Program-made: the position numbers and the translations under genes
NCBI GenBank assembly: GCA_048885925.1
Contig: JBHLLG010000003.1
Coordinates: 23,727-87,726 of the forward strand
Source of the DNA: Candidatus Hermodarchaeota archaeon
GTDB lineage: Archaea; Asgardarchaeota; Lokiarchaeia; Sigyniarchaeales; SOKP01
DNA: 64,000 bases
Direction of reading: 5' to 3'
The notes under the pieces: model-generated
Seen by the model: only the letters and a program-made list of their open reading frames with translations
Database searches by the model: none
Told to the model about the DNA's origin: nothing
Shown here: piece by piece, positions 14,523 through 58,274 of the stretch
Numbering within the stretch: the first letter of the stretch is position 1
Layout: each line of letters starts with the position of its first letter

Positions 14523-14720
14523 TGATGAAATTTTAAATTTGATAATTTTTAAAATCAGTAATTTTTGAAATCAATAATTATTATATTTGTTTTTATAGAG
14601 TACTATAGTAATTTTATAAACATGTGTATAAAAAGTTGAAAACTTTAAATATATGTTAAAATGAACTATTATTTGAAAATCTAAAATAAAATATAAAAGT
14701 TTAAAAAAATAAATTAAGAA

Positions 14721-16211
14721 GTGATCAAAAATATGGAAGCACTAACTAAAAGAATTATAGCTATTGTCCTTATTGTTGCCATTGGAGCAGGTGTTGGCGT
14801 GACCGCATGGATTTTTCTTGCGGCACCAGGCGCTGGTGAATATTCTTGGGGTGCAAAAGATTGTCCAGGCTTACCTGAAGGAGCTACTGTTACTTCAGAG
14901 AATATAATCAAGTTCGGAGTGGCCGGTGATGTTGGTGAAATAACAGGTGATGGCGCTTGGGAAGGTACAAGGTTCGCGGCAAAAGAAATAAATGCAGCAG
15001 GTGGTATTGTAATTAACGGTACTACATATTATATTGGGGTCACAAAAGAAGATACAGATGAGGCAAATCCTAATTTAGTAACATCAAGAGGTGTTAATGC
15101 CGCAGAAAGGTTGGTGTATAATAAAAAGGTTCATTTTGGAATTGGTGGATTCAGATCAGAGGCATTGTTAGCATACCGAGAAGTATTTATGGAAAACGAG
15201 ATTATATTTATTGATACTGGAGCCGCTACAGATGTATTTTGTGCATCAGTCGGATCATGGTATACTAGATATAAATATTTCTGGAGATCCATGCCAATAA
15301 ACTCATCTTCATTAGGCGCTCAAATCTTTGGCTATCTCTTCTATATGGTAGGTTTGTTAAATTACACCTATCATCCTGCTACAAGTCCAATTGGAGGAAC
15401 TGAACCAATTGATAAAATTGGAATAATTTATGAAGATTTAACTTGGACAAAGGATTTAGTAAATGGCGTGAAGACATATTTCGGAACTCCAGGAATCCCT
15501 GTTCCTCCCTATAATAAATACGCAGGAATGCTTGTAGAAGATATCCCATATGATGTTACCTTAACCTCGGCAGATATGCTCACTCATGTAAATGCATTAA
15601 TAGCTGCTGGATGTGATATTGTTATCCCTGTAATATCTGCTCAAGGTGGAGTATTCTTAACACAACATTATGCTGATCTTACGCCAAATTTCATTTTAAT
15701 AGGAATAGATGTTCAATCACAGTTGGACACATATTGGACTCAAACTGGCGGAGATTGTGTGTACGAGACTATAATGCAAAGTATACATTATACCAATAAA
15801 ACTGCAACCACAAAATCATTTTGGACAGATTTTCGCACAGAATATGGTCATGATCCACTTTATACTGCATCGGGTAGCTACGATGCTGTAAACTTCCTTG
15901 TGTGGGCAATCGAAGAGACTCAATCATTAGATCCAGATGTTATAACAGTTCAAATGGAGACAGCTACAAAATCCAATGTAATAAATAATCCTGGGGATTT
16001 CCCTTCTAGTGTTGGTGGACTTGGAGCCTACAATAGTAATCACGATCTGATTGCAGGTTATCCATTTGGATATACTTTGTGGTGCCAGTGGCAAGCTAAC
16101 GCAACGAAAATAATTTGTCCAACCGGAGGTTATGTATACCCTGACACCGCTCTTGAGAATATTGGAACGTATCAAGTGTCACCTTGGGTTCATACAGCAT
16201 GGACAACTTAA
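14721..16211 (+). CDS. ABC transporter substrate-binding protein, Leu/Ile/Val-binding-protein (type I PBP) family
   Basis: N-terminal hydrophobic anchor (IIAIVLIVAIGAGVGVTAWIFLAA). Then 'KFGVAGDVGEITGDGAWEGTRFAAKEINAAGGI' and 'VHFGIGGFRSEA', typical of LivK-like binding proteins. First gene ahead of livHMGF. Tracked start GTG 14721, alternative ATG 14733. Confidence 0.75.
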   Translation: MIKNMEALTKRIIAIVLIVAIGAGVGVTAWIFLAAPGAGEYSWGAKDCPGLPEGATVTSENIIKFGVAGDVGEITGDGAWEGTRFAAKEINAAGGIVINGTTYYIGVTKEDTDEANPNLVTSRGVNAAERLVYNKKVHFGIGGFRSEALLAYREVFMENEIIFIDTGAATDVFCASVGSWYTRYKYFWRSMPINSSSLGAQIFGYLFYMVGLLNYTYHPATSPIGGTEPIDKIGIIYEDLTWTKDLVNGVKTYFGTPGIPVPPYNKYAGMLVEDIPYDVTLTSADMLTHVNALIAAGCDIVIPVISAQGGVFLTQHYADLTPNFILIGIDVQSQLDTYWTQTGGDCVYETIMQSIHYTNKTATTKSFWTDFRTEYGHDPLYTASGSYDAVNFLVWAIEETQSLDPDVITVQMETATKSNVINNPGDFPSSVGGLGAYNSNHDLIAGYPFGYTLWCQWQANATKIICPTGGYVYPDTALENIGTYQVSPWVHTAWTT

Positions 16212-19881: not shown

Positions 19882-21342
19882 ATGTCAGCTCCTTTAGAAA
19901 TATTATTGAGAGATGCTCGAATTGATCTCGTTTTAGCTCGAATCGAGAAAGATGAATCTATTATAAATGAGATAATAAACCATATAGATAACAATATTAG
20001 ATCGATTAAATTCAATGCGATTCATGTATTAGGAGAATTAGGCCAAAAATCTAAAAACAGTATCTCAAAATTGAGGAAATGTTTAGAAGATGATGATTGG
20101 AGTATTAGACGTGAAGCTGTTAGATCCTTAGGAAAGATTGGAGAAATTGCTAAAGATACAATTCCACAGGTATCGATAATGCTAAAAGATAAAGAAGAAT
20201 CTATTAGAAGTGAAGCAGCAATTTCACTTGGTAAGATTAAGAATCCGACTAATGAAGCAATTTCAAGTTTAATTGAAGTATTAAATGATAATTCTGAAAT
20301 TGTCCGAACTGAAGTTGCTAAAGCTCTCGGTGAAATAGGGGCAGATGCATATGAAGCAATTCCATTTCTTATGAAAAGCCTTAAAGATGTAAGTTGGACT
20401 GTTAGAACTTCCTCAGCTCAATCAATTAGTCAGATTGGGAAAGGATCTACCAAAGCCATACCAAGTTTAATAAAAGCACTTGAAGATAAAGATTGGAGAG
20501 TAAGATTCAGAGTCTCGAATACTTTAGCAGAATTAGGAAAGGAAGTAATTCCAAATCTTGTATCTATATTACACCATAAAGATAAATTTGTAAGAAAGTG
20601 CGTAGTAGATATATTGGGAGAAATGAAACTAACAGATCAAAATATAATGGACAATATCTCAAAACTATTACATGATAAAGCCGAAATCGTTAGAGGGAAA
20701 GCTGCTGATGCTCTTAGGAGTATTGGCAAAGACGCTGTTCCCATTTTAAATAGAGAAATTGAATCAGCATCTTTAAAAATGAAAAAAATCATAATTTCTG
20801 CACTTGGAGGTATTGGTACAGACGCTAAAGAAGCGATTCCAACTCTTATCAGTTTATTAAAAGTGCCTGAACAATTATATATTGAACATATGCTTGGAAT
20901 GGGTTTATGGAAGGTTATTTCTTATAAGTCTAAACATTCAATTTTAACTTTTATAAACGATCCCTTTAGAAGAAATGTATCAGTTAGAGTAGAAGTAGCA
21001 AGAGCATTAGGAAAAATTGGAGTAGATTCAGAAGATGCTATCCGTGCTCTTGAATTTGCTTTGTATGATCCCAGAAGTATTGTACGACGTGAAGCTGCAC
21101 TTTCTTTAGGAAAATTAGGATTATTAGCAAAAAATGCAGTTCCCAGTTTAATTAAAAGTTTACAAGATAAAAATCCAGATGTAAGATGGAGATCATCTGA
21201 AGCATTGGGAGTATTAGGCGTTAATACCGAAGAAGTTATATCAAGTTTGAATGAATTAATCCATGATGAATGTGATTTCGTATGTGAATCTGCTATTAAT
21301 GCATTAGATGCATTAACCGAAGAAGAACAAAAATATTATTAG
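19882..21342 (+). CDS. HEAT-repeat protein (PBS-lyase/HEAT-like repeats, about 13 copies)
   Basis: Repeated ~31-aa units ending in '..VR..A..ALG.IG', for example DWSIRREAVRSLGKIG, SEIVRTEVAKALGEIG and NPDVRWRSSEALGVLG. Starts 11 nt after livF with GGGTGAT upstream. Confidence 0.8.
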   Translation: MSAPLEILLRDARIDLVLARIEKDESIINEIINHIDNNIRSIKFNAIHVLGELGQKSKNSISKLRKCLEDDDWSIRREAVRSLGKIGEIAKDTIPQVSIMLKDKEESIRSEAAISLGKIKNPTNEAISSLIEVLNDNSEIVRTEVAKALGEIGADAYEAIPFLMKSLKDVSWTVRTSSAQSISQIGKGSTKAIPSLIKALEDKDWRVRFRVSNTLAELGKEVIPNLVSILHHKDKFVRKCVVDILGEMKLTDQNIMDNISKLLHDKAEIVRGKAADALRSIGKDAVPILNREIESASLKMKKIIISALGGIGTDAKEAIPTLISLLKVPEQLYIEHMLGMGLWKVISYKSKHSILTFINDPFRRNVSVRVEVARALGKIGVDSEDAIRALEFALYDPRSIVRREAALSLGKLGLLAKNAVPSLIKSLQDKNPDVRWRSSEALGVLGVNTEEVISSLNELIHDECDFVCESAINALDALTEEEQKYY

Positions 21343-33573: not shown

Positions 33574-33987
33574 ATGGAAAAGATAATACAAGATATATGG
33601 ATACTAAATGATGCTGGTGCGGTTCTATTTAACCGTGTTTTTGAAAAAAAAATTGATGAACAATTAATTGGAGCTTTGATGTCAGCATTGAATCTATTAG
33701 CAGAAGAATTAGAAAGAGGAGGCTTATCTAATTTTCAGCTTAAAGAAAAAAAATATTTTATTATGAAACAACATGGAATATCTTTTATAGTTAATTCCTC
33801 AAAAAAGACTAAAGAGAAAAAAGTTAATGAAGAATTGAAAAGTATAGTAAATAAGTTCTTCAATTTATATCCAAAAGAGATGCTTAATACTTGGGACAAT
33901 GATATAAGTATATTTTCTGATTTCGAAAAGCATATTGAAGATAGTTTACAAGATACTATAGATAAATTTGAAAAAGCTTTTTGGTAA
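33574..33987 (+). CDS. small cytosolic protein with a longin/roadblock-like pattern
   Basis: The inferred secondary-structure order is beta-beta-alpha-beta-beta-alpha. The segments are IQDIWILND / GAVLFNRVF / DEQLIGALMSALNLLAEELE / LSNFQLKEKKYFIMKQ / GISFIVNS / helix. This is fold-level inference only. Confidence 0.35.
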   Translation: MEKIIQDIWILNDAGAVLFNRVFEKKIDEQLIGALMSALNLLAEELERGGLSNFQLKEKKYFIMKQHGISFIVNSSKKTKEKKVNEELKSIVNKFFNLYPKEMLNTWDNDISIFSDFEKHIEDSLQDTIDKFEKAFW

Positions 33988-39379: not shown

Positions 39380-39942
39380 ATGGTAAAATTACGGAGAAAG
39401 TTACTAAATCATTTATTTATAAAGTTTGTATAGTAGGAGACGGTGGAGTAGGTAAAACCAGTATGGTTTTGAGATATTGTGAGAACACCTTTAAAGAAAA
39501 TTATATAATGACTATTGGTTCTAATTTTTCGACAAAACAAATAGAATTAGAAGATTATCCAAACTATCTCATTCGCCTACAATTATGGGATCTTGCTGGA
39601 CAAAAACATTTCAGCTTTGTTCGCCCACCATTTTATCGTGGTGCTAGTGCGATTGTATATACATTTGACATTACGCGAAGAAGTTCATTTCAGAATATTT
39701 TAAACTGGAAGAGTGAAGTGGAAAAAGTAATCGGTGATGGTAAACCAAGTATTTTAGTTGGAAATAAATTCGATTTAGCAGAAAAGGGGAATAGGGAAGT
39801 AGGAGAAGGAGATGGAGAAGCATTGAAGGATGAGATTAATGCTTTAGCTTATTTTGAAACTAGTGCCAAGGATGATATTAAAGTTGAGCCTGTATTTAAA
39901 ACAATCACAATGGCAATTTTAGAACACACCAAAAAAATATAG
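39380..39942 (+). CDS. Rab/Ras-like small GTPase (N-terminus out of frame with its only nearby ATG)
   Basis: G1 'GDGGVGKTS', switch I 'TIG', G3 'WDLAGQ', G4 'GNKFD' and G5 'ETSAK'. G1 lies upstream of the tracked ATG (39463). The GTPase frame is open from 39367 but has no ATG, GTG or TTG before 39463. ATG 39380 joins the frame only by a -1 shift in the A4 run at 39385-39388. Confidence 0.8.
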
Positions 39943-40852: not shown

Positions 40853-41248
40853 ATGGGGAAAAAGAAAAAGATTAGAGAGGACTTTGACGAGCTATTTAAA
40901 AAAGGCGATGAAAAGGGGATAAAAAAGATGTTAGATAAAAATCCGTGGTTACTCAATGAAGTTTCAACTACTTTAAATACAGGTATGGCTGAACAAAATG
41001 AAGTAATAGCAGCTTTAGGTGTAATGGAAGACGAGCTTGGAGGTCCTGTCCCAATTGATGAGATAGCATTTAGTTTAAGAGTTGATTTCAATATTCGTAA
41101 AAGTGATGATGAGATACATCAAATTCTTATGGGTATAGAAAAGTTAAATCTTGTAAAAAGAGATGCTAATGGATGGAGTTTGACTTATGAGGGGGGTAGA
41201 ATTTGCGATGATTATCTTAACAAAAGTCTTGGAAAATTTGATTTATAA
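40853..41248 (+). CDS. hypothetical protein (131 aa), possible winged-helix C-terminus
   Basis: Basic N-terminus (MGKKKKIRED), then 'PVPIDEIAFSLRV...DDEIHQILMGIEKLNLVKRDANGWSLTYEG', which looks like a helix-helix-wing arrangement. No family recognised. The antisense ORF 40849-41091 is judged spurious. Confidence 0.45.
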   Translation: MGKKKKIREDFDELFKKGDEKGIKKMLDKNPWLLNEVSTTLNTGMAEQNEVIAALGVMEDELGGPVPIDEIAFSLRVDFNIRKSDDEIHQILMGIEKLNLVKRDANGWSLTYEGGRICDDYLNKSLGKFDL

Positions 41249-41361: not shown

Positions 41362-44300
41362 GTGTTGAGGCTAATGGAAGAGAGAAGGGAAGAAAATTTC
41401 GATAAAGAATTTGATGAGGATGAGTTCGATCCAACAAAGGAAGCATTCTTTTCGGATATGATAGAAATGGAAGAAGAAATTGCTTCTGAAGCATATGAAT
41501 TAGTTGAGCATGCTATCAATCTAATAGAATCACAATATTACAACGATAGTATTGAAATTTTACGTCAAGCAATTGGATTATATACTCAAATTAACAGAGA
41601 AGAAGAGATTAAAGCTATAAATGATAAAATAGCAGAAATATATGTACTTAAAGAAAAAGCATTCAGAGAAGTTGAAATTGAATCTGAAAAAGCTGCTGAA
41701 CCCGTAGAAGTACCTGAAGTAATTGATAAAAGTTCAATATTTGAAAAACAAGAGGTAATGAAAGAGTTTGAAGCAACTGAAGAGTCTAAAGCAATTGAAG
41801 AACATAAAGTGTTAAAAGATGCCATAAAGATTGCTGATTTAATGATCAATGCGGAAAATTTGTTAAAAGAAGCTCAAGAGTTAATTAACAACAATTATTT
41901 CGAAGAAGCGCTCAGTAAATATGATGAAGTGGAAACAATTTATACAGAATTAGGAAAATCAAGTGAGATAGATAATTTATACAAATTAATTGAAGATTGT
42001 TATAACCGAAAGGCTAAATTCTTACGAAGTATTAAAAAAGAAGAAATTAGAGAAGAAATAGACACGAGTGTAAAAGTGGAAGCACAATCAACAGAAGATC
42101 TTTTAAAGGAAAAAAGATTAAAGGAATATTTTGAAAATAAAAAGAGAGAAGAGGAGATCTCCTCTAAAGCTTACCAATTACTTGATAAAGCAGCTGAATT
42201 AACCACACAGCACAAATATGACAAAGCTTTAGAATTTTATGAAAAAGGAGCTAATTTATTTGGAGAATTAAATTGGACATATGAAGTTAGAAAAGTTCAA
42301 GATACGATTTTTCAATTAAAAATAGAAAAAGCAAGATATATACAAAGGCTAGAAGAGGAAAGAATGAAACCAGAGAAAGTGGTTGAAACTAAAGAAGAAA
42401 TTACTGCGCAACAGGTAACAGAAATTGAGGAGCAGGATAGAATTGCTCAAATAGAAAAGTTAAGAGAAATAGAATTTCAAAAAATGGAACAAGAATTTTT
42501 TAAAGCTCAAATTGATAATATGGCCACTGAAGCTGCTAGAATGGCACGTGAATATGAATTAGCTATGCAAAAAGCGATTAAGAAAGGAGAACTAGAAGAA
42601 GAATGTATTTACCCAAAAGTCATTGAAATTTATAAAAAAATAAGGGAATTACTTGTTGATAAGGGATGGAATAAAGAAGCAACGATCTATGATGATACGA
42701 TAGATATCTATATTCAAAAGTTTGAACAAGATAAAAGAATTAGGCAAATAGAAGCTGAAAAAATCAAAAAGCAACACGAAGCTGAAAAGATGCTGAAACT
42801 AAAAAAAGAGGACATTGAAATTCACCTCAGCGAAGAACAAATAAAAGCTAAAGAGATGCAACAACAAAAAGAGATAGAAATACAAAATGTTCGAAATCAA
42901 TTAAATGATATGTCAAAAAGAGCTGATCGGTTAGCAAGAGAGTATGAGCTTGCATTAAGAAAAGGTAAATTTGAGTTAAAATGTCCTTATCCTCAGATAA
43001 TTAATATATATAAGAAAGCTAAATATATGGCACAAGAGAGAGGATGGGATACAGATATAGCAATTTTTTCAAGTCAAATTTTTACATATAAAGAAAAGTT
43101 AGAAAAAGATAAAAAGTTAAGAGAAATAGAAGCGGAAAAAGCACGGAAACAAGAAGAAGTTGAGAAGGCTTTTAAAGTTAAAAGAGAAGAACCAAAAGTT
43201 TCTTTAGATATCGAGAAGTTAAAATTATTAGAAGAACAAAGAAAATTAGAAGAAGAAAAAGAAGATTTTGAGGATATGGTAAATGCAATGATAAATCGAG
43301 CAGAAAAAATTGCTCGAGAATATGATACAGATATGAAAAAAGCCATAAAGAAAGGTAGATTGGCACAAAATCCTCCATTCTTAAAGATCATAAATATTTA
43401 TGAGAAAGTAAAACAAATGTTCCTTGAAAGGGGTAGAAATGAAGAAGCAATTGCTTATGGGAATCAAATAAATTTTTATTCTCAAAAATTAGAACAAGAT
43501 AATAAATTACGAGAAGTGGAAGCCAAAAAAGCTGAAAGGGAAAAAGCACTAGAAGAAATGCATAAAGTTGATAGAAAAGTTGAAATAGATGACCAAAGAT
43601 TAAAAGCTTCAGAGAAAAAAAAGGAAGAAGAAGAATTTGAGAAATTTATTTCTGAAAATGTCAATATGGCAGAAAAGATGGTACGAGATTTTGAAATTGC
43701 TATGCGAAAAGCTTATAGAAAAGGGGAAATATTGGAAACTACACCATATTCTAAAGTTATCGACATTTATAAAAATCTTCAAGAGAAAGTCTATGCTAGG
43801 GGTTGGAGAGAGCAATCTGAAGTATACATAAATCAAATTAAAATTTATCAAGATAAATTAGAAAAACATGAAAAATTGTTAGAAGTTGAAGTTCAAAAAG
43901 CTCAAAAGGAAAAAGGATTAGAAGAAATGCATAAAGTAGAAAAGGAGAGTGAAGCTGATACAAAAAGATTGAGTAAAATTGAAAGAAAAAAAGAAGAAAA
44001 AGAATTTGAGAAAAATATTGCTGAAAATGTCAGTATAGCAGAAAAAATGGTGAGAGATCATGAAATTGCTATGAGAAAATCATATCGAGAAGGAAAAATT
44101 CTAGAAAGCACACCATATCCAAAAGTTATTGAAATATATAAAGAAATTAGAGAAAAAATTTATGCTAAAGGTTGGAAAGAACAAGCAAAAGTATTTGCAA
44201 ATCAAATAAAAATTTATCAGGAGAAGTTAGATAAACATAAAAATCTCCTTGAAATCGAAGCTCAGAAAGCACAAAAACAAAAAGAACTAGAAGAAATGCA

Positions 44301-46713
44301 TAAAGTAGAAAAGAAGAGTGAAGCTGATACAAAAAAATTGAGCATTATTGAAGAAAAAAAAAAAGAAGAAAAAGAATTTGAAAAGCATATTTTAGAACTG
44401 GTTAATAAAGCAGAAAAACTAGAACGAGAATTTGATTCATCTCTGAAAAAAGCGATAAAAAAAGGTAAGGTAATTGAGTTAACACCATATCCAGAAATAA
44501 TTGAGATATATAAACAAATTAAAGATGAATTGGATGAGAAGGGCTGGGTAGATCAATCGCAAATTTATTTAAACCAAATAAAAATCTATCAGGAGAAATT
44601 AGACAAGCATAAAATTTTGCTTGATAAAGAATCAGAAAAAGCAGAAAAAGTAAAAGAACTTGAAGAACTGAAGAAGGCAGGTAAAAAAGAAGTTAAACCA
44701 TTCAAACCAGAAAGAATTAAAGAACTTGAAGCTGAAAAAGAGGAGGACATATTATTAGACAAAGCGATGAGTCTTATTGATGAGACAGAAAAAGAAGTTA
44801 AAAGTTATGAATTAAGCATAAGGAAAGACATTTTGATGTATGTAAGTCCTTATGAGAAAGCAATCTTTAATTATGAAGAAGCAAGAAAATTATTCCAAAA
44901 AATTGGATGGATTGATGAGGCTAATCGATTAATTAAAACTATCAAATTTTACAAGGATAAGAAAGAAAAAGATGATAAATTAAGAGAGATTGAACAAAAG
45001 AAGTTAGAGAAACCAGAAGTTGAATTAGAAGCTGTAAAGATAGAACTTGATAAGGATTTTCTTGAAAGTCAGAAAAGATTAAGAGAATTTGAAAAAAAAG
45101 AAAAAGAAGCCGATGAAAAAGCAGTTAAAGTATTGTCTTTAATTCAAAATGCTGAAAAGATGGCTCAAGAATATGAATTAAAACTAAAATCGGGAATATT
45201 TGATTATGAAGCACCATATGAAAAAATTATTGAGATTTATCGTGTTGCTCGCAAAAAATTTGAAGAAATAAATTGGAAAGAAGAATCAGCGAAATTAATA
45301 GATACAATAAATTTTTATAAAGAAAAATTAGAGCAAGATAAGAAGATACGAGCTTTGGAGCTTGAAAAAGTAAAAAAGCGGGAAAAAGAATTACTCCTTC
45401 AACAAAAATTATTAGAACAGGCACGCCAAGAACAGGAAAGATTACTGCAAAAGCGAAAAGAATCTTTACAAGTAAAAAAAGAACGTATTGCACAATTTGA
45501 GACGGAGAAAGATAAAGCATTTCGTTTAATGGATCAAGCTAAACGTGAATTAAGACTTAATAATTTTGATGAAGCTATTGATATTTATAAGGAAAGTGAA
45601 AAAATGTTTATAGATATGAAGTGGGAAGAAGGAATTATGATGGTTAGAGATTCAATTACAATGATTATTAATAAGAAAAAAGCTTATGAGCTTGAACAAA
45701 AAGCAGTAGAAGAAAGAAAAGTTGAAGAGCTTGAGTTTGAAGAAAAATTAGAAGAGAAATTAGCTGAAGCGCGCGAAGTAAGAAAAAAGCAACAAGAAGA
45801 GAAACGAAGAGAATTTTTAAAAGTTCAGAGGGAAAAAGAGCGAGAAGAAAAAATCTCAGATGAGGCATATCAACTTTTAGAAGAAGGTACAAATTTTATG
45901 GACCGTAAAAAATTCTCTGAAGCATTCGAGAAATATATGGCAGCAAGAGACTTATTTGAAGAAATAGGGTGGCAAAGAGAGGTTTCAAGAATTAATAACG
46001 AGCTCCTATTTAAACTTAAAAGAGAAGAAAAACAAGCTGAGATTCTAGAAGAAATAAAGTTGAAAAAAATTGAAGAGGAGAAAGAATTAGAATTAATAAA
46101 AGAAGAAACGAAAAAAGAACATGAAGAAATGGAAAAGAAGAGAAAAGAAGAAAAAAGAAAGCTTGTAAAGGAAGAATATGACAGAAAAATAGCTGTTCAA
46201 CTCAATAAAGCAGAAAAATTAATAGAAAGTTATAGGTATAATGAAGGGATTGTAATAATCAAAGAAGAAATCCAAAAATTAAATATACCAGAAAAGGAAT
46301 CTGAAATTAAAGAACTTCATGAAAAAATTGAAAATTTAGGAACCCTTTCTCATATTCCATTAATTACTATTGAAATATCAGGTGAAGAAATTCAAAATGC
46401 GAATTTTAAAGCAGCTTATACTGCATTAGATGAAGCTCAAATATCTATAATCAATAAAAATTACAAGAAAGCTATATCTGAGTTAAACGAAGCAAAATAT
46501 AATCTTGAAAAGGTTAAAATTGGTAAAAGATTTGTAAAAGAGATTGACGAAAAAATTGATCAATACAGAGAAAAACTTGGAAGAAAACCAAAAGAACCAG
46601 AAATTGAAGTACTCACTGACGAAGAAACTCAAAAGATTAAAGCAAGAATCATTGCTAGAAGGGAATTGAGGAGAAATAAGGTTTTAGATCTTTTAAAAAA
46701 AAGTTCAAAATAA
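41362..46713 (+). CDS. giant (1,783 aa) helical repeat protein: about 15 TPR/MIT-like modules separated by E/K-rich helical linkers
   Basis: 5.35-kb ORF (GTG 41362 or ATG 41374) with a purine-rich coding strand. The recurring module is 'AE+.AREYE.A.+KA.KKG.....PYP.II.IYK.....L...GW..........QI..Y.EKLE.D+KLREIEAEK'. Shorter modules of the form 'A..LL..A......Y..A...Y..A..LF.E.GW' sit at both ends. Confidence 0.8.
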   Translation: MLRLMEERREENFDKEFDEDEFDPTKEAFFSDMIEMEEEIASEAYELVEHAINLIESQYYNDSIEILRQAIGLYTQINREEEIKAINDKIAEIYVLKEKAFREVEIESEKAAEPVEVPEVIDKSSIFEKQEVMKEFEATEESKAIEEHKVLKDAIKIADLMINAENLLKEAQELINNNYFEEALSKYDEVETIYTELGKSSEIDNLYKLIEDCYNRKAKFLRSIKKEEIREEIDTSVKVEAQSTEDLLKEKRLKEYFENKKREEEISSKAYQLLDKAAELTTQHKYDKALEFYEKGANLFGELNWTYEVRKVQDTIFQLKIEKARYIQRLEEERMKPEKVVETKEEITAQQVTEIEEQDRIAQIEKLREIEFQKMEQEFFKAQIDNMATEAARMAREYELAMQKAIKKGELEEECIYPKVIEIYKKIRELLVDKGWNKEATIYDDTIDIYIQKFEQDKRIRQIEAEKIKKQHEAEKMLKLKKEDIEIHLSEEQIKAKEMQQQKEIEIQNVRNQLNDMSKRADRLAREYELALRKGKFELKCPYPQIINIYKKAKYMAQERGWDTDIAIFSSQIFTYKEKLEKDKKLREIEAEKARKQEEVEKAFKVKREEPKVSLDIEKLKLLEEQRKLEEEKEDFEDMVNAMINRAEKIAREYDTDMKKAIKKGRLAQNPPFLKIINIYEKVKQMFLERGRNEEAIAYGNQINFYSQKLEQDNKLREVEAKKAEREKALEEMHKVDRKVEIDDQRLKASEKKKEEEEFEKFISENVNMAEKMVRDFEIAMRKAYRKGEILETTPYSKVIDIYKNLQEKVYARGWREQSEVYINQIKIYQDKLEKHEKLLEVEVQKAQKEKGLEEMHKVEKESEADTKRLSKIERKKEEKEFEKNIAENVSIAEKMVRDHEIAMRKSYREGKILESTPYPKVIEIYKEIREKIYAKGWKEQAKVFANQIKIYQEKLDKHKNLLEIEAQKAQKQKELEEMHKVEKKSEADTKKLSIIEEKKKEEKEFEKHILELVNKAEKLEREFDSSLKKAIKKGKVIELTPYPEIIEIYKQIKDELDEKGWVDQSQIYLNQIKIYQEKLDKHKILLDKESEKAEKVKELEELKKAGKKEVKPFKPERIKELEAEKEEDILLDKAMSLIDETEKEVKSYELSIRKDILMYVSPYEKAIFNYEEARKLFQKIGWIDEANRLIKTIKFYKDKKEKDDKLREIEQKKLEKPEVELEAVKIELDKDFLESQKRLREFEKKEKEADEKAVKVLSLIQNAEKMAQEYELKLKSGIFDYEAPYEKIIEIYRVARKKFEEINWKEESAKLIDTINFYKEKLEQDKKIRALELEKVKKREKELLLQQKLLEQARQEQERLLQKRKESLQVKKERIAQFETEKDKAFRLMDQAKRELRLNNFDEAIDIYKESEKMFIDMKWEEGIMMVRDSITMIINKKKAYELEQKAVEERKVEELEFEEKLEEKLAEAREVRKKQQEEKRREFLKVQREKEREEKISDEAYQLLEEGTNFMDRKKFSEAFEKYMAARDLFEEIGWQREVSRINNELLFKLKREEKQAEILEEIKLKKIEEEKELELIKEETKKEHEEMEKKRKEEKRKLVKEEYDRKIAVQLNKAEKLIESYRYNEGIVIIKEEIQKLNIPEKESEIKELHEKIENLGTLSHIPLITIEISGEEIQNANFKAAYTALDEAQISIINKNYKKAISELNEAKYNLEKVKIGKRFVKEIDEKIDQYREKLGRKPKEPEIEVLTDEETQKIKARIIARRELRRNKVLDLLKKSSK
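43552..44660 (+). repeat. three tandem 369-372-nt coding repeats with long near-identical stretches
   Basis: 'GAAGAAATGCATAAAGT' recurs at 43552, 43921 and 44290. 'GAATTTGA' recurs at 43633, 44002 and 44374. Copies 2 and 3 share 53 of 55 nt from 43921 and 44290. Confidence 0.85.
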
Positions 46714-46760: not shown

Positions 46761-46991
46761 TTATATTAATAGATTTTCTTGAAGTTCACTTTCTACTTCC
46801 GATTCTATTGCGCTGGGGGCAAGATTCCGGTTTACTGATTCCTCTATCAAATATTCTGTTTTAATTAGATCTCTTATTGCTACGCGAATAGCTTCTGACC
46901 TATTAGGGAATTTTCCGTCAACTACAAGTAATTCTAAGACTTTTAAATAAGACTCAGGTAAGTTTACTGATATTAATTTCATTAAAATCAT
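46761..46991 (-). CDS. ribbon-helix-helix (CopG/NikR-type) DNA-binding protein
   Basis: 'MKLISVNLPESYLKVLELLVVDGKFPNRSEAIRVAIRDLI' is a classic RHH pattern, followed by an acidic tail. I trimmed the tracked ORF (to 47078) to the internal ATG at 46989-46991. An ATG at 46980-46982 is also possible. Confidence 0.7.
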   Translation of the reverse strand: MILMKLISVNLPESYLKVLELLVVDGKFPNRSEAIRVAIRDLIKTEYLIEESVNRNLAPSAIESEVESELQENLLI

Positions 46992-47284: not shown

Positions 47285-47608
47285 ATGAATATGTCTAGTA
47301 TTGATACCCAATTAAAAGAACATCTAAAGAGTGGGGGTGATTGGGAAAAAATGGAGACTCCCGTTCCGGGTGTTTTCGTAGTTAAAGTCCCTGCAACAAA
47401 AACAAAGCCAGCACTACTATTTCTAGAGATTAATCCTTTAAAAGATGATGGTAAACCACTAAAAAAGAGAGGGTTATTTGTTGGCTCTAAAGAAATGTTA
47501 TTGAAATTTAGTGAAGCATTGAATGATGACAAGACTTTTCAGTTGATTGGAGAACTAGAGAAAATTAATCCTGAAATTAAAACAAGAGCTAAAAAATTGA
47601 AAATGTAA
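47285..47608 (+). CDS. hypothetical protein (107 aa)
   Basis: ATG preceded by GAGG. The composition is soluble and mixed (…DWEKMETPVPGVFVVKVPATKTKPALLFLEINPLKDDGKPLKKRGLFVGS…). Preferred over the overlapping antisense ORF 47206-47532, which is low-complexity. Confidence 0.5.
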   Translation: MNMSSIDTQLKEHLKSGGDWEKMETPVPGVFVVKVPATKTKPALLFLEINPLKDDGKPLKKRGLFVGSKEMLLKFSEALNDDKTFQLIGELEKINPEIKTRAKKLKM

Positions 47609-47815: not shown

Positions 47816-48100
47816 ATGTCTGAAGAGGATGGAGTTCATTGCATTGTTTGTGGAAAAGATCAGTTCTCTTTAGCCCACGATGAATGGATGAGAAGAGCTT
47901 TTCCTTTTGTAGAACAAGGACAACTAAAAATGTGTTCTGGTTGCGGAGCCAAATATCTTATATGTGAGAGTTGCGGAGGTCTATACTGCCGTATACACCC
48001 TGCTCTTGAAAGTTGGGAGCTTCCAGACAAATGTCCTAAGTGTGGATGGTTAAATGAAAGCGTTAGAGCTTGGGATGGAACCTCTGCTCGCCATTTTTAA
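47816..48100 (+). CDS. zinc-ribbon protein (94 aa, four CxxC pairs)
   Basis: 'CIVCG', 'CSGCG', 'CESCG' and 'CPKCG' are spaced as two rubredoxin-like knuckle pairs. Confidence 0.55.
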   Translation: MSEEDGVHCIVCGKDQFSLAHDEWMRRAFPFVEQGQLKMCSGCGAKYLICESCGGLYCRIHPALESWELPDKCPKCGWLNESVRAWDGTSARHF

Positions 48101-48774: not shown

Positions 48775-49746
48775 ATGAGTTTAGAAACACCTTGGGTTGA
48801 AAAATATCGGCCTGAAACATTTGATGATATTGTAAGTCAGAGTATTGCGATTAATAACCTAAAAGAATTTGTAAAAACTACGGATATACCTCATCTGATT
48901 TTTACGGGTCCTGCAGGAACTGGAAAAACTAGTACCGCCTTAATAATCGCAAAAAGTTTTCTTAATGAAGAAGAATTTGATACAAACCTACTAGAATTGA
49001 ATGCTTCTGACACCGTACGGATAGATTTTGTAAGAAATGTTCTTAAGAGTTTTGTAAATCAACATTTAGTTAAAAATGGGTCTTTAAAGTTTGTGATTTT
49101 AGATGAAGCTGATAATATTCCTTCACAAGTTCAGCAAGCTCTTAGGAGAATTATTGAAAAAGCATCAACTAATATAAAGTTCATACTTTTATGTAATTAT
49201 ATTAATAGGATTATAGATCCAATAGTATCTCGATGCGCTGTATTTAGATTTGTAACTTTACCTAAAGAAAAAATAGTAGAAAGATTAAGATATATAGCAA
49301 AAAAGGAGAAATTAAAAATACCGTCTAATCAATCAGAAGAATTCTTCAGTCAATTATATTTCATTTCTGGAGGAGATTTAAGGAAAGCAATCAATAGTCT
49401 CCAAATGGCTGTTGCACTTGAACTTTTAGATAATTTAGACATTAACGAGATATTAAGAATTTCTGGATTCTTAGACAAAGAAACATTGAAAAGTTTAATT
49501 TTTTCTCTTAAGAGCAAAGATTATAGGAAATCAAGAGAAATTCTTAGTTCGATTGAAACTTTTGATAGTCGAAATTTCATAAGACAAATATCAGAGTACA
49601 TACCTTCATTAAATATTTCACCTGAAAATATTATTAGTTTAAAAGCCTTTATTGGAGATATAGATTATCGAATAAGCCAAGGTGCTGATGAACAGGTTCA
49701 GATTTCAGCTCTGTTATCGGCAATCATTGAGAATATTCAATCTTGA
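48775..49746 (+). CDS. rfcS: replication factor C small subunit
   Basis: RFC box II 'PWVEKYRPETFDDIV', Walker A 'GPAGTGKTS', Walker B 'ILDEADNI', 'SRCAVFRF' and 'GGDLRKAIN'. Confidence 0.9.
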   Translation: MSLETPWVEKYRPETFDDIVSQSIAINNLKEFVKTTDIPHLIFTGPAGTGKTSTALIIAKSFLNEEEFDTNLLELNASDTVRIDFVRNVLKSFVNQHLVKNGSLKFVILDEADNIPSQVQQALRRIIEKASTNIKFILLCNYINRIIDPIVSRCAVFRFVTLPKEKIVERLRYIAKKEKLKIPSNQSEEFFSQLYFISGGDLRKAINSLQMAVALELLDNLDINEILRISGFLDKETLKSLIFSLKSKDYRKSREILSSIETFDSRNFIRQISEYIPSLNISPENIISLKAFIGDIDYRISQGADEQVQISALLSAIIENIQS

Positions 49747-49788
49747 TTATTTATTAGAAAATTTAAAGAGAGAAAGAGATAGTTAAAT

Positions 49789-50835
49789 ATGATTGAACAA
49801 ATTCCGATTTGGCGAATTAAGTATCATCCAAAAAGTTTAGACGAAGTTTGCGGCAGAGATGAGGTAAAAGAGACTTTAAAACGTATGATTCACCAAAGAA
49901 ACTTTCCACATTTATTATTTATTGGTTCAAAAGGTATAGGAAAAACTTCAATTGCTCAATTATTCTCAAAGGAGTTTCTTGGTAATAATTATAATGCAAA
50001 TTTTAAATTAGTTTATGCTGATGTTCCTTTAAGCGAAGAAGAGAGAACTGAAGCAAGATCTGATGCATATGTTTCTACAAGTAAAATTGGAAGTATAGCA
50101 GGAAAAAGGATAACAACACCCGCGTTTATTCAGGCTAGAGTTAAACCCTTTGTACAATTGAAAGTGTTAGGAGATGCCCCATTTAAAATTCTAATTGTAA
50201 AAAATTTTGAAGCTTTAGGTGGGGATCAACAAGGCTTTAGAAGACTAATGGAAAAGTATGGCACAAATTGCAGAATGATATTGATTAGCACGAAAATTTC
50301 AAGTATCATTGATCCTATTGTTAGTAGATGCCAAATTTTCTTAATTTCTAGAATTAAGTTTAACAATTTCAACGAATTAATTAAAAAAATCGCTAAAAAG
50401 GAATCTTTAGAAATTTCTAATGAGGTAAGTGAAATTTTGTACAAAATATCTGATGGAAAAATATCTCGAGCAATTGATATTTTACAATTATGTAGTATTT
50501 CAGAAAACAAAATAGATTCTGAAAAGATTTATGAAACATCTCAATTTTTTCATAATGAACTTATACAAAGTCTTTTAATGATTGCTTTCAAAGGAGATTT
50601 CCCTAAAGCTCGAGAATTATCACGCAAAATCCTTTCTAATTATAAATTTGATCTGAGCGAGTTCTTTAAACTTTTAATCAATGAATTAAACAAATTGCCT
50701 TTAAGTAAATTTGCACGGATTAAATTAATAAATTTTATTGCAGATTCTGATTTTAGAGCAATTGATGGGAGAGATAATGATATTCAAATATCTGGTCTTT
50801 TATCAAAAATATGTTTATTTTCGGATTATATGTGA
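49789..50835 (+). CDS. replication factor C small-subunit paralog, divergent (Walker B lost, ~30-aa insertion)
   Basis: 'IWRIKYHPKSLDEVCG', Walker A 'GSKGIGKTS', 'SRCQIFL' and 'DGKISRAID' are retained. The Walker B position reads 'ILIVKNFEAL' (nt 50185-50214). An extra segment (YADVPLSEEERTEARSDAYVSTSKIGSIAGKR...) lies between Walker A and B. Confidence 0.75.
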   Translation: MIEQIPIWRIKYHPKSLDEVCGRDEVKETLKRMIHQRNFPHLLFIGSKGIGKTSIAQLFSKEFLGNNYNANFKLVYADVPLSEEERTEARSDAYVSTSKIGSIAGKRITTPAFIQARVKPFVQLKVLGDAPFKILIVKNFEALGGDQQGFRRLMEKYGTNCRMILISTKISSIIDPIVSRCQIFLISRIKFNNFNELIKKIAKKESLEISNEVSEILYKISDGKISRAIDILQLCSISENKIDSEKIYETSQFFHNELIQSLLMIAFKGDFPKARELSRKILSNYKFDLSEFFKLLINELNKLPLSKFARIKLINFIADSDFRAIDGRDNDIQISGLLSKICLFSDYM

Positions 50836-50846
50836 GGATTTAAATC

Positions 50847-52202
50847 ATGTCAAAAAAGAAAGTTGAGATTCCGTGGGTGGAGAAATATCGTCCAAAAAGT
50901 ATAAAAGACATGGCTTTACCTTCAGCACGGATGGGTGGTCAAAGGGTTAAATTAGCTGAGCAATTAATGAACTTTATTGAAAACTTTTTCCTAGAAAGAA
51001 GAAGAATTAATAAAGAAAACAGAGAGATTCGCGAATTTAATAGAACCGTTATTGAAAAAGACCAAAAAGAAGAATTGAAAATTCCCTCTGAAAAAGCAGC
51101 AATTTTATTAGAAGGACCTCCCGGGATTGGAAAAACTTCTATTGTTTATGCTCTTGCGAATGACTTAAATATGGAAGTAATAGAAACTAACGCATCAGAT
51201 ACGCGAACAAGAGCTACTTTAGAAAGAAGGTTGAAAGAAACTGTTAAATCTCGTGGAATTATGGATTATATAACAGAATCAAAAGAGAAACTTATACTTA
51301 TTGATGAAATTGATGGGATATATGGTGTTCAAGACAGAGGTGCTATTCCTACCGTAATCGATTTAATTGAGAATACTCAGTTTCCTATTATAATGTGTTC
51401 AAATGAATATAAAACAAATCTACAACCACTCTATAATAAAATATTGAGATATGAAGTTCATCCTTTAGCTAAGAAAGAAGTAATTAAAATTACACAAAAC
51501 ATTCTCAAGAAAGAAAAAATCACAAATCTGAAAGATGATGATTTGGAATTAATAATTGAAAAGAATAATGGAGATTTGAGAGGAGTGATAAATGATGTTC
51601 AAGGAATATGTCAAGGCGGAATAGAAGAAGATACTAAGGAATTGATTCTGAGTCTCCACCGTGATAATATTGAAGAAATTTTCTCATTAATTAGAGATTT
51701 GTTTAAAATATCCACATTAAGGGAAGCTCGAAACTTAACTGATAAATCTGATGTTGATTATAACTTTCTATACAAATGGATAAATGAAAATCTAGTTTTA
51801 TTCATGAAATCTAACAGAGAACTTTCTGATGCTTTTGAAAATCTTTCATTAGCAGATGAAATATTTGGAAGAATTCGTATTAACCAATATTGGGGATTAT
51901 TACCTTATTTTTTTGACCTTTTTGCAGGAGGTGTTGCATTATCACGAAAAGAGACACCTATTGCCAAGGGATTTCAAAGAGTTGTTTTTCCTCGATATTC
52001 TTCTGGAACTTATTTTTCTTTAAGTAATAATGAAAAAGAATTTATTGGGAAACTCAAAAGAAAATTTGAAATTTCTCAAGTTGATTTTATTCAAGAATTC
52101 CTTCCATTTTTAAAAATTTTATGTGGAGCTTCGCGAAAACAATTAAAATCTGTGAGTGATTGGTTAGATTTAGATGCAAAAGAAAAGAAAATATTGAAAT
52201 AA
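50847..52202 (+). CDS. rfcL: replication factor C large subunit
   Basis: 'IPWVEKYRPKSIKDM', Walker A 'GPPGIGKTS', Walker B 'LILIDEIDGI' and 'NGDLRGVIND'. The 451-aa length and its position after the small subunits fit. TGAGGAT lies upstream of the ATG. Confidence 0.85.
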   Translation: MSKKKVEIPWVEKYRPKSIKDMALPSARMGGQRVKLAEQLMNFIENFFLERRRINKENREIREFNRTVIEKDQKEELKIPSEKAAILLEGPPGIGKTSIVYALANDLNMEVIETNASDTRTRATLERRLKETVKSRGIMDYITESKEKLILIDEIDGIYGVQDRGAIPTVIDLIENTQFPIIMCSNEYKTNLQPLYNKILRYEVHPLAKKEVIKITQNILKKEKITNLKDDDLELIIEKNNGDLRGVINDVQGICQGGIEEDTKELILSLHRDNIEEIFSLIRDLFKISTLREARNLTDKSDVDYNFLYKWINENLVLFMKSNRELSDAFENLSLADEIFGRIRINQYWGLLPYFFDLFAGGVALSRKETPIAKGFQRVVFPRYSSGTYFSLSNNEKEFIGKLKRKFEISQVDFIQEFLPFLKILCGASRKQLKSVSDWLDLDAKEKKILK

Positions 52203-57587: not shown

Positions 57588-58274
57588 ATGTCAGATGAAA
57601 AAAAGACTTTAAATGTTATTGATGAAACTATTCAAGCAGCAGAGTCAAGTTTTAAAGAATTCATTGATGTATTAGAAACATCCAGAACTGCATTATTAAA
57701 ACTTGAAAATGATAAAATAGAGCTAAGTAATGTTAAAGAACAACTTGAAACAGAAAAAATACAACTAGAAGAGGAAAAAAATAAGCTGGAAAACGTAAAA
57801 CGACAATTAGAGGCTGATAAGAAAAAATTAGAAGAAGAAACTAGAAAACTTGAAATTGAAAAACAAGAACGAGACCAAAAGATAGGTTCTTTGACAGAAG
57901 AACAAATGAAACTATTAGATGAATATAGAAAAGTAAAAGTGGAATTAGAGAAATTTATGAAAGCTGCTGAGGAAGCTGAAGAAGCAGAATATAATTTTGA
58001 GAGAGTTCGTGCTCTATTATCGATTTATACAGTCTTAGTTTCTGAGATTTGGCAAGGCCAACCTCATTATAGAATTCTCATGACTCTTCATGGTGAAACT
58101 GACGAAATGTCAAGAGATCAAATAAAGAATACAACTGGAATAGGTGGTGCATTTGTCTTACATTCAGTACAAGAATTAGCGAAAGTTGGGCTTGTAGACT
58201 ATGATATGGATACGGGTATGGTGAAATTGAAAAAACGTCTATTTCCTAAAAAAGCATTAGAAGAAAAGAAATAA
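57588..58274 (+). CDS. coiled-coil protein with a C-terminal winged-helix-like domain
   Basis: N-terminal ~130 aa of heptad-rich E/K/L sequence (LETEKIQLEEEKNKLENVKRQLEADKKKLEEE...). Then 'HYRILMTLHGETDEMSRDQIKNTTGIGGAFVLHSVQELAKVGLVDYD', which is MarR/ArsR-like wHTH. Confidence 0.5.
   Translation: MSDEKKTLNVIDETIQAAESSFKEFIDVLETSRTALLKLENDKIELSNVKEQLETEKIQLEEEKNKLENVKRQLEADKKKLEEETRKLEIEKQERDQKIGSLTEEQMKLLDEYRKVKVELEKFMKAAEEAEEAEYNFERVRALLSIYTVLVSEIWQGQPHYRILMTLHGETDEMSRDQIKNTTGIGGAFVLHSVQELAKVGLVDYDMDTGMVKLKKRLFPKKALEEKK

Follow-up and report, generated by a model that had tools for sequence, protein, structure and literature searches.

A giant protein of fifteen predicted MIT/TPR-like three-helix bundles, encoded in a conserved four-gene core of Lokiarchaeial Asgard archaea, is a candidate multivalent scaffold

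The window analyzed here, a stretch of 64,000 nucleotides (nt) of contig JBHLLG010000003.1 (positions 23,727 to 87,726 of the forward strand, assembly GCA_048885925.1) from Candidatus Hermodarchaeota archaeon, encodes a very long protein composed of repeated helical modules, referred to below as the giant. The open reading frame (ORF) of 1783 codons described in an earlier note, which was made from the sequence alone, was found on the + strand at 41362..46713 when counted from the GTG at 41362, and only its start codon probably shifts to the ATG at 41374, leaving a coding sequence of 1779 amino acids (aa) at 41374..46713 (+). The ATG is favored because the NCBI model of the protein (P0001, hypothetical protein ACFE9I_02730, Candidatus Hermodarchaeota archaeon) has 1779 aa and is 100% identical to the giant, all same-length orthologs open with M-[ED]-E at residue M5 of the GTG-started frame in the alignment, and a GAGG is located 5 nt upstream. 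The protein is rich in glutamate (19.1%) and lysine (16.2%) with a net charge of -38, and the DNA of its gene shows a strong purine skew. In agreement with the earlier note, no transmembrane segment was detected, the top 19-aa Kyte-Doolittle window having a value of 0.78, and neither Pfam nor NCBIfam reported an enzymatic or catalytic domain.

The giant consists of 15 homologous modules in the order three short, eight extended, and four short, which matches the earlier count of about 15 modules of two types with short ones at both ends and eight extended ones in the center. The modules were aligned with MAFFT, and a hidden Markov model built from the 15 also recovered 15 in P0001. On the N-terminal side, S1 (aa 36-105, nt 41467-41676), S2 (aa 152-226, nt 41815-42039), and S3 (aa 264-334, nt 42151-42363) occupy, together with their linkers, positions 41467..42363 (+). 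The extended modules E1 to E8 are ~243 nt long, with a linker of 40-46 aa behind each one, and have their starts at aa 385, 511, 637, 764, 887, 1011, 1132, and 1254 (nt 42514, 42892, 43270, 43651, 44020, 44392, 44755, and 45121, +); the unit alignment placed them at 42514..45363 (+), next to the span of nt 42510-45370 read by eye, and the consensus then proposed for them was also correct. On the C-terminal side, S4 (aa 1380-1450, nt 45499-45711) and S5 (aa 1496-1566, nt 45847-46059) lie within 45499..46179 (+), joined by Pro-free charged helices that are continuous in the AlphaFold2 (AF2) prediction, and S6 (aa 1607-1668, nt 46180-46365) and S7 (aa 1676-1746, nt 46387-46599) form a close pair at 46180..46599 (+), also seen with AF2. 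The two short-module peptides quoted earlier were located in S3 and S5. Modules start 111-127 aa apart except for S6 and S7, the sole pair without a long linker in between, whose starts are separated by 69 aa.

Both module types are homologous, as the short-module and extended-unit profiles were aligned by hhalign with a probability of 95.6% (E = 1.3e-8), and the extended type corresponds to the short type plus an insertion of ~16 residues between helices 1 and 2. The eight extended units share 27-73% pairwise identity across the whole ~125 aa, linker included, with 73% protein identity between E4 and E5. At the DNA level, Tandem Repeats Finder detected an array at 43486..44667 (+) covering E4-E6 with a period of 369 nt and 3.2 copies (75-79% matches, score 914-1030). 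The E4-E6 region is a recent tandem duplication with this period, and the repetition of modules is far beyond chance.

A full-length search returned at least 200 relatives of 1,066-2,175 aa with 35-66% identity. The named relatives come from Asgard metagenome-assembled genomes (MAGs) or a marine sediment metagenome; nearly all the Asgard labels are Promethearchaeota/Lokiarchaeota, and a few are Thor-, Hermod-, Hod-, or Odinarchaeota. The Asgard source guessed earlier was thereby confirmed. All are annotated as hypothetical, save two JGI records named tetratricopeptide (TPR) repeat protein. The scan of species-representative genomes gave Promethearchaeota/-ia MAGs only, plus two MAGs titled uncultured archaeon, and included 9 close Promethearchaeota loci. 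Ortholog lengths vary in whole units of ~125 aa, corresponding to 12-20 modules: proteins of ~1378 aa have 12 modules, those of 1505 aa 13, 1632 aa 14, 1757 aa 15, 1890 aa 16, 2010 aa 17, and 2125-2175 aa 18. A search of 1.84 billion representative proteins with the extended-unit profile yielded only 146 matches at E<=1e-3. Fragments are common among them, and the longest protein, of 2910 aa, has 20 matched stretches; judged by this profile, the extended module is very rare. One weak match of the unit profile, P0249, was set aside as an unrelated TPR+CHAT protein. The cultured Promethearchaeum syntrophicum MK-D1 carries a relative, DSAG12_01611 (positions 8001-15644 of locus L016 from CP042905.2), of 2,547 aa with ~20 modules and 25% identity to the giant. 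No published description of the family, its architecture, or the locus tag DSAG12_01611 was found in the searchable literature.

Two segments of the giant were modeled with AF2. The model of unit E5 with its flanks (aa 867-1010, 68-sequence alignment) had a predicted local distance difference test (pLDDT) value of 90.5 and a predicted template modeling score (pTM) of 0.69, with helices at residues 2-43, 53-69, and 73-142, the first and third of which reached the fragment ends. The model of the C-terminal 414 aa (aa 1370-1783, 20 sequences) had a pLDDT of 85 and a pTM of 0.38, which fits an elongated, non-globular chain, and S4, S5, S6, and S7 were predicted with three helices each. Helix 3 of S4, the linker, and helix 1 of S5 formed a single helix of 93 residues (model residues 53-145, pLDDT >90), helix 3 of S5, the linker, and helix 1 of S6 formed one of 85 residues (model residues 169-253), and the S6-S7 region contained helices 257-271, 274-293, 311-328, 332-347, and 350-369. 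Helix 2 of the modules is only 15-17 residues long. The models are in line with the earlier picture of modules strung on helices, predicting discrete helix-loop-helix-turn-helix units at pLDDT 85-90 and not one coiled coil or disorder.

The linkers measure 37-50 aa, so the earlier estimate of 40-60 aa has to be corrected, and contain 42-72% charged and 17-30% bulky hydrophobic residues. The last two (aa 1451-1495 and 1567-1606) are 69-72% charged, compared to 42-63% in the remaining linkers. The former was predicted as an isolated helix with pLDDT >90 and the latter had a pLDDT of 73-96, and fractions of i/i+4 opposite charges in the two were 0.17-0.33; they appear to be the best candidates for a single alpha-helix (SAH). 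The E8-S4 linker is 49% charged and Pro-free, and in the last three linkers (E8-S4, S4-S5, and S5-S6) Pro occurred in 0/29 orthologs. Among the same 29 orthologs, Pro is usual in the S1-S2 and S2-S3 linkers. Several other linkers contain Gly or Pro. In the linkers E6-E7 and E7-E8 around module E7 (44695..45120, +), the ortholog alignment has Pro in the columns of P1113, P1116, and P1218 in 24/29, 20/29, and 22/29 sequences, respectively, and these conserved prolines are probably hinges. The idea of uniform rigid SAH spacers is supported in part at most, since high charge is confined to the last two linkers and several others contain Pro or Gly, including the conserved proline hinges. The alternative that the linkers are coiled coils was not borne out, since the best a/d occupancy of heptads was 0.38-0.62 and no linker exceeded its own shuffles.

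Because the distribution of Pro and the charge differ between linkers, the modeled rod would be segmented, with flexibility in its N-terminal part, a center that is mostly helical, hinges conserved at two sites, and stiffness in the C-terminal third. Counting 0.15 nm for each residue of the 85-93-residue helices and subtracting the stretch that helix 2 retraces, the rod may measure ~10-11 nm per module and roughly 100-150 nm overall if straight.

Conservation was expressed as mean column conservation in the 29 same-architecture orthologs and was 0.58-0.83 in modules versus 0.28-0.69 in linkers, with S1 (0.83) as the most conserved module and 0.79 in E1. Both termini are conserved as well. An acidic N-terminal segment with the motif DPTKEAFFSD (41374..41466, +) reached 0.69, and the protein ends with a conserved basic helix (46621..46704, +; AF2 and ortholog alignments) with the consensus L[RK]x[RK]IAARREERRKKVLDLLKK. 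This helix was predicted at model residues 385-412, preceded by residues 373-383 that were disordered with pLDDT <50. The MK-D1 ortholog terminates in the related basic tail IEERKKRRREARKKLLGD. A profile of the C-terminal tail retrieved nothing relevant and no ESCRT-III protein from PDB. The MIM1 consensus, one of the MIT-interacting motifs (MIMs), is (D/E)xxLxxRLxxL(K/R); the tail core LxxRIxxRR is reminiscent of it and may serve as a lead, but the third Leu is replaced by Arg.

The fold class of the modules was assessed against MIT and TPR domains. Pfam MIT (PF04212, gathering score 30 bits) matched S3 alone with E = 4.5e-6 and 27.1 bits and the whole protein with 20 bits (E = 7.5e-4), and only 3/15 modules matched it at E<1. 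The earlier statement that no family was recognized was slightly too strong in view of the S3 match, which lies under the cut-off. A precomputed PF04212 match was present in 47/120 listed orthologs, and two distant relatives exceeded the cut-off, P0256 with 50.1 bits and P0236 with 34.5 bits. The S3-ortholog profile matched the MIT domains of VPS4A (2.2e-5), MITD1 (5.7e-4), and VPS4B/SKD1 (1.8e-3) in PDB and consensus TPR designs at 4e-9, a value summed over repeats and covering helices 1-2 only. The sole natural PDB match of the extended-unit profile at E<0.1 was the MIT domain of Sulfolobus Vps4 (CdvC) 2w2u (E = 5e-3), which covered all three helices and aligned the I..Y.EKLE of the module to INEYKRRIE of MIT helix 3. 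With the mixed profile of all 15 modules, Sgt2 TPR was the best PDB match (2.7e-4), and calpain-7 tandem MIT, MITD1, VPS4A, and NRBF2 MIT were also retrieved. The S5 profile gave weak TPR matches, and the S1 profile matched FliS at 7.5e-4, taken as a chance likeness among helical proteins. Against Pfam TPR_1 and TPR_2, S3 scored 17.3 bits (cut-off 27.8) and 13.4 bits, respectively, and distant relatives were above the TPR_2 and TPR_12 cut-offs.

A Foldseek search of PDB with the E5 model gave alignments of 70-96 columns, all at E>1, with BAG bundles and with three MIT structures (2v6y, 2w2u, and 5ow5_D). With the C-terminal model, P58(IPK) TPR ranked first (probability 0.91, E = 5e-3), Hop, Sti1, and Cpr7 came next, and calpain-7 tandem MIT 8uc6_B was a weak match (E = 0.59). 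MIT, BAG, and TPR were the fold classes retrieved by the two models, with no other class, which is all that the match lists are used for here, and the spectrin family was found neither among Pfam matches at E<=1 nor among the top 50 Foldseek matches of either model. The AF2 models of E5 and S4-S7 predict the isolated antiparallel three-helix bundle typical of MIT; three or more adjacent TPRs stacked into a superhelix were not found, the modules being separated by linker helices of 37-50 aa. The modules can be described as MIT/TPR-like, a borderline assignment from sequence profiles in which the protein is not filed as a bona fide member of the MIT family.

In the window, the giant gene is preceded by the genes for a Ras-family GTPase, the proteasome alpha subunit, and a 131-aa protein, p131, and followed by a convergent ribbon-helix-helix (RHH) gene and the genes for p107, a Zn-ribbon protein, a GNAT acetyltransferase, and three RFC proteins. 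The proteasome alpha gene is located ~600 nt upstream here and in most related loci. By homolog search and PDB profile, p131 (40853..41248, +) is a winged-helix-like protein of no recognized family; it had no Pfam or NCBIfam match, and the best PDB match of its profile was the winged-helix-like C-terminus of ribosomal protein S19e (E = 0.19). It has 398 homologs, of which the 120 listed are 130-133 aa long and 72-100% identical. The p131 gene is directly 5' of the giant in every locus read, rearranged ones included, and the locus tags of the two are consecutive in 10 NCBI MAGs. The MK-D1 homolog is 44% identical, in the winged-helix-like part only. In the same loci, p131 evolves far slower than the giant (65-93% vs 41-75% identity).

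The RHH gene (46761..46991, -; 76 aa from ATG 46991; Pfam RHH_1 6.9e-7) had as its best NCBIfam match CdrS (NF058555, E = 5.8e-10, 39 bits), ahead of NikR, ParD, and aCcr1 (0.004). The score is below the CdrS equivalog cut-off (39 vs 100 bits), no FtsZ/tubulin gene is present in the window, and by these matches the RHH gene is CdrS-like only. CdrS is a haloarchaeal regulator of ftsZ2 and cell division (PMC7439475, PMC8406309), and aCcr1 controls cdvA in Sulfolobales (PMC9976878). The RHH gene was found 3' of the giant in every locus extending past the end of the giant, MK-D1 included, and its 120 listed orthologs are 74-100% identical, all close Lokiarchaeial, with NCBI names varying between ParD antitoxin and CopG. 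The p107 gene (47285..47608, +) encodes 107 aa of an unknown family with no Pfam or NCBIfam match; its position is conserved, including in MK-D1 (51% identity), where other neighbors differ.

The loci of close relatives mostly showed plain synteny. Three of them (L003, L013, and L015) are rearranged, by insertion of a UPF0182 gene or by inversion of the proteasome and Ras genes, and in MK-D1 nearly all neighbors of the giant differ. In these four loci p131, the giant, and the RHH gene keep their order and orientation, as does p107 where it was reached (L003, L015, and MK-D1). The genes p131-giant-RHH-p107 are a conserved four-gene core surviving rearrangements, and the presence of a CdrS-like RHH gene in it hints at a cell-division or cell-cycle context. 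A functional link of the giant to the proteasome, Ras-family GTPase, GNAT, or RFC neighbors was rejected, as these are lost or rearranged in the same four loci.

Next to the core, a Cys-rich 94-aa protein with several CxxC pairs (47816-48100, +) had weak zinc-ribbon matches only; its gene adjoins p107 in most related loci and had no tblastn match in the MK-D1 locus. Behind the GNAT gene, three consecutive RFC-type AAA+ genes (48775-52202, +) encode two small-subunit-like proteins and a large-subunit-like one, a block that is syntenic in most related loci. The window also contains genes of the eukaryote-signature type, assigned by Pfam and all on the + strand: the Ras-family small GTPase (39463-39942; Ras 3.1e-39), a longin-like protein (33574-33987; Fuz_longin_1 3.9e-5, below cut-off), and a 486-aa HEAT-repeat protein (19882-21342) that also matches Adaptin_N (5.3e-18). 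A 2,995-aa ORF (5535-14522, +) in the most AT-rich stretch (21-25% GC) contains 17.7% Leu, 16.9% Ile, and 13.2% Phe and ~70 hydrophobic 19-aa segments over its whole length; its product, which Pfam did not assign to a family at 1e-4, looks like a giant polytopic membrane protein. A 228-aa ORF (57588-58274, +) gave a sub-threshold match to Nuf2 DHR10-like coiled coil (24.8 bits vs 28.4), which probably reflects generic coiled-coil similarity.

We consider it about evenly balanced whether the giant is a soluble, acidic, elongated, multivalent peptide- or filament-binding scaffold of Lokiarchaeial Asgard archaea. In this reading, 15 three-helix bundles of the MIT/TPR type would be spaced every 111-127 residues like beads on a rod, with helix 3 of one bundle continuing through a solitary charged helix into helix 1 of the next, hinges at a few linkers, a stiff, Pro-free C-terminal third, and, at the end, the S6-S7 pair, a disordered spacer, and the basic terminal helix. 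By analogy to the MIT-MIM and TPR-C-terminal peptide interactions, each bundle would accommodate a short helical or peptide motif in a groove, and with one groove per bundle the array would attach with high avidity to a polymer or to one ligand present in many copies. How far it reaches would be set by the count of ~125-aa units, which ranges from 12 to 20 among species. The roles of scaffold, ruler, or tether suggested in the earlier note are plausible, and the whole-unit variation in ortholog length gives them some support.

As far as is known, MIT domains are the universal adaptors reading ESCRT-III tails. Because of the MIT similarity of the modules, ESCRT-III filaments would be the best single candidate ligand, a tentative choice that is more likely wrong than right; it is graded low because of the borderline MIT membership, the Asgard-restricted named members, the lack of a linked ESCRT gene, and the putative nature of the binding. 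A more elaborate version is distinctly doubtful: a poly-MIT filament reader in which 12-20 bundles at ~10-nm intervals would dock on the MIM tails of successive subunits of ESCRT-III or another Asgard polymer, templating, bundling, or measuring it during division or protrusion formation in Lokiarchaeia, within the four-gene module of p131, the giant, the CdrS-like RHH cell-cycle regulator, and p107. If true, the giant would be an archaeal ESCRT/cytoskeleton accessory without a eukaryotic counterpart.

Several observations count against the binding scaffold and its MIT-based ligand. The sequence of the giant itself stays below the Pfam MIT cut-off (27.1 and 20 vs 30 bits), the S1 and S5 ortholog profiles retrieved no MIT domain from PDB, helices 1-2 in the S3 profile fit generic TPR at least as well as MIT, and neither model had a Foldseek match in PDB at E<1e-3. 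The resemblance to TPR and MIT noted earlier stands to the extent that these two are the only consistent natural relatives of the module profiles, and is weakened by the first two of these points. No ESCRT gene was found in the 64-kb window or in 16 related loci. ESCRT occurs across Asgard archaea generally, while all named members of the giant's family are from Asgard MAGs with nearly all labels Promethearchaeota/Lokiarchaeota; because the family is nearly confined to Loki labels, the giant is not a core ESCRT component. The AF2 models are monomer predictions and would be compatible with oligomerization.

A mechanical spacer or cross-linker similar to spectrin or Ebh is unlikely, yet it is the rival that survives best. 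The bundles would then be stable, perhaps unfoldable, structural beads and not binding sites, and the protein would join the cytoskeleton (lokiactin, tubulin-like, or ESCRT filaments) to the membrane or envelope only via its conserved termini, the DPTKEAFFSD motif and the basic C-terminal helix. The predicted continuous helices between successive bundles, as in spectrin rods, the whole-unit length variation with a recent duplication, the conservation of both termini and of hinges in some linkers, and the amphipathic character of the basic C-terminal helix, which could bind membrane or nucleic acid, argue for it. Conversely, the modules have no sequence or Foldseek likeness to spectrin, plakin, or Ebh repeats, their surfaces and not the termini alone are more constrained than linkers (S1 0.83, E1 0.79), and the short bundles, with a helix 2 of only 15-17 residues, are MIT-sized and not spectrin-sized. 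Even as a passive spacer, the giant would be a clean natural modular rod of bundles and single helices, its length evolving by whole-unit duplication.

It is improbable that the giant is a TPR-type proteostasis adaptor or co-chaperone, comparable to P58IPK, Hop, and SGT, that captures chaperones, ubiquitin-like conjugates, or proteasome subunits by their C-terminal tails. This role would explain the usual adjacency to the proteasome alpha gene, ~600 nt upstream in the window and most loci, and is consistent with P58(IPK), Hop, Sti1, and Cpr7 leading the Foldseek matches of the C-terminal model and with Sgt2 TPR (2.7e-4) as the best PDB match of the all-module profile. The adjacency is, however, lost or inverted in L003, L013, L015, and MK-D1 where the four-gene core persists, three unstacked helices per module offer no TPR superhelical groove, and a Foldseek root mean square deviation (rmsd) of >60 Angstrom indicates local similarity only. 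Self-assembly of the giant seems just as improbable. The C-terminal helix with its core L-x-x-R-I-x-x-R-R would dock into the MIT-like bundles of neighbors, giving a head-to-tail or lattice-like polymer that is itself a cytoskeletal element; the helix is strongly conserved, separated from S7 by a disordered tether, and kept in MK-D1 despite 25% overall identity, and each chain offers fifteen potential receptor bundles. The MIM1 likeness, however, is incomplete, the third Leu of the consensus being Arg in the tail, and the tail profile finds no ESCRT-III or other protein in PDB. Finally, a canonical two-stranded coiled coil of the SMC/Rad50 type or a structureless low-complexity E/K-rich ORF, which an E+K content of 35% and the strong purine skew of the DNA might suggest, is refuted by the lack of ATPase head domains in Pfam and NCBIfam, the lack of heptad a/d enrichment over shuffles, the discrete bundles predicted by AF2 at pLDDT 85-90, and at least 200 orthologs with modules conserved at 0.58-0.83.

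Compared to the MIT domains of VPS4/CdvC and the tandem-MIT proteins (Vta1/LIP5, calpain-7, ULK3, and MITD1), the giant shares the predicted isolated antiparallel three-helix bundle of ~70-80 aa, several module profiles that match VPS4A, VPS4B, MITD1, calpain-7, and Sulfolobus Vps4 MIT, a helix-3 pattern I..Y.EKLE that aligns with the MIT helix-3 motif, and, in S6-S7, a close pair as in tandem-MIT proteins. To our knowledge, MIT proteins carry one or two MIT domains, in contrast to 15 bundles in the giant and 12-20 in its relatives. The bundles of the giant are fused by predicted continuous helices of 85-93 residues and not by flexible linkers, no ATPase, protease, kinase, or other effector domain accompanies them, the extended type has the ~16-residue insertion between helices 1 and 2, and the giant's own Pfam MIT score is under the threshold. 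Among TPR proteins (P58IPK and SHNi-TPR/NASP), P58IPK is an elongated monomer with TPR subdomains joined by extended helices. In the S3 profile, helices 1-2 of the module fit the TPR consensus (4e-9), and P58(IPK) was the best Foldseek match. The giant differs in that one unit equals only 1.5 TPR equivalents, no superhelical stacking of units occurs, charged helices of 37-50 aa act as spacers, and global superposition fails (rmsd >60 Angstrom).

Spectrin, alpha-actinin, dystrophin, and Staphylococcus aureus Ebh have in common with the predicted structure of the giant the serial three-helix bundles in which the last helix is continuous with the first of the next one, and with its family a length evolving by whole-repeat duplication. 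The Ebh repeat period of ~126 aa is similar to that of the giant. The giant differs in the absence of sequence or Foldseek likeness to these rods, in much shorter bundles (helix 2 of 15-17 residues) separated by a solitary helix, and in being cytoplasmic and archaeal. With the ER/K SAH spacers of myosin VI/X and caldesmon, the last two linkers share a charged content of 69-72% and the absence of Pro in 29 orthologs. Most other linkers have fewer charged residues (42-63%), a bulky hydrophobic content of 17-30%, and in many cases Pro or Gly.

Lokiarchaeia give access, through cultured members, to the archaeal relatives of eukaryotes, and the MK-D1 ortholog DSAG12_01611 makes the family experimentally accessible. 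The fold of the modules is known; what was not found described is an architecture in which 12-20 isolated MIT/TPR-like bundles are connected by uninterrupted helices and accompanied by hinges, a close pair near the C-terminus, and a tail that is conserved, all encoded in a four-gene core. Set beside the single or paired domains of known MIT proteins, an array of 12-20 such bundles, regularly spaced along a rod of perhaps >=100 nm, would represent a new mode of multivalent polymer engagement.

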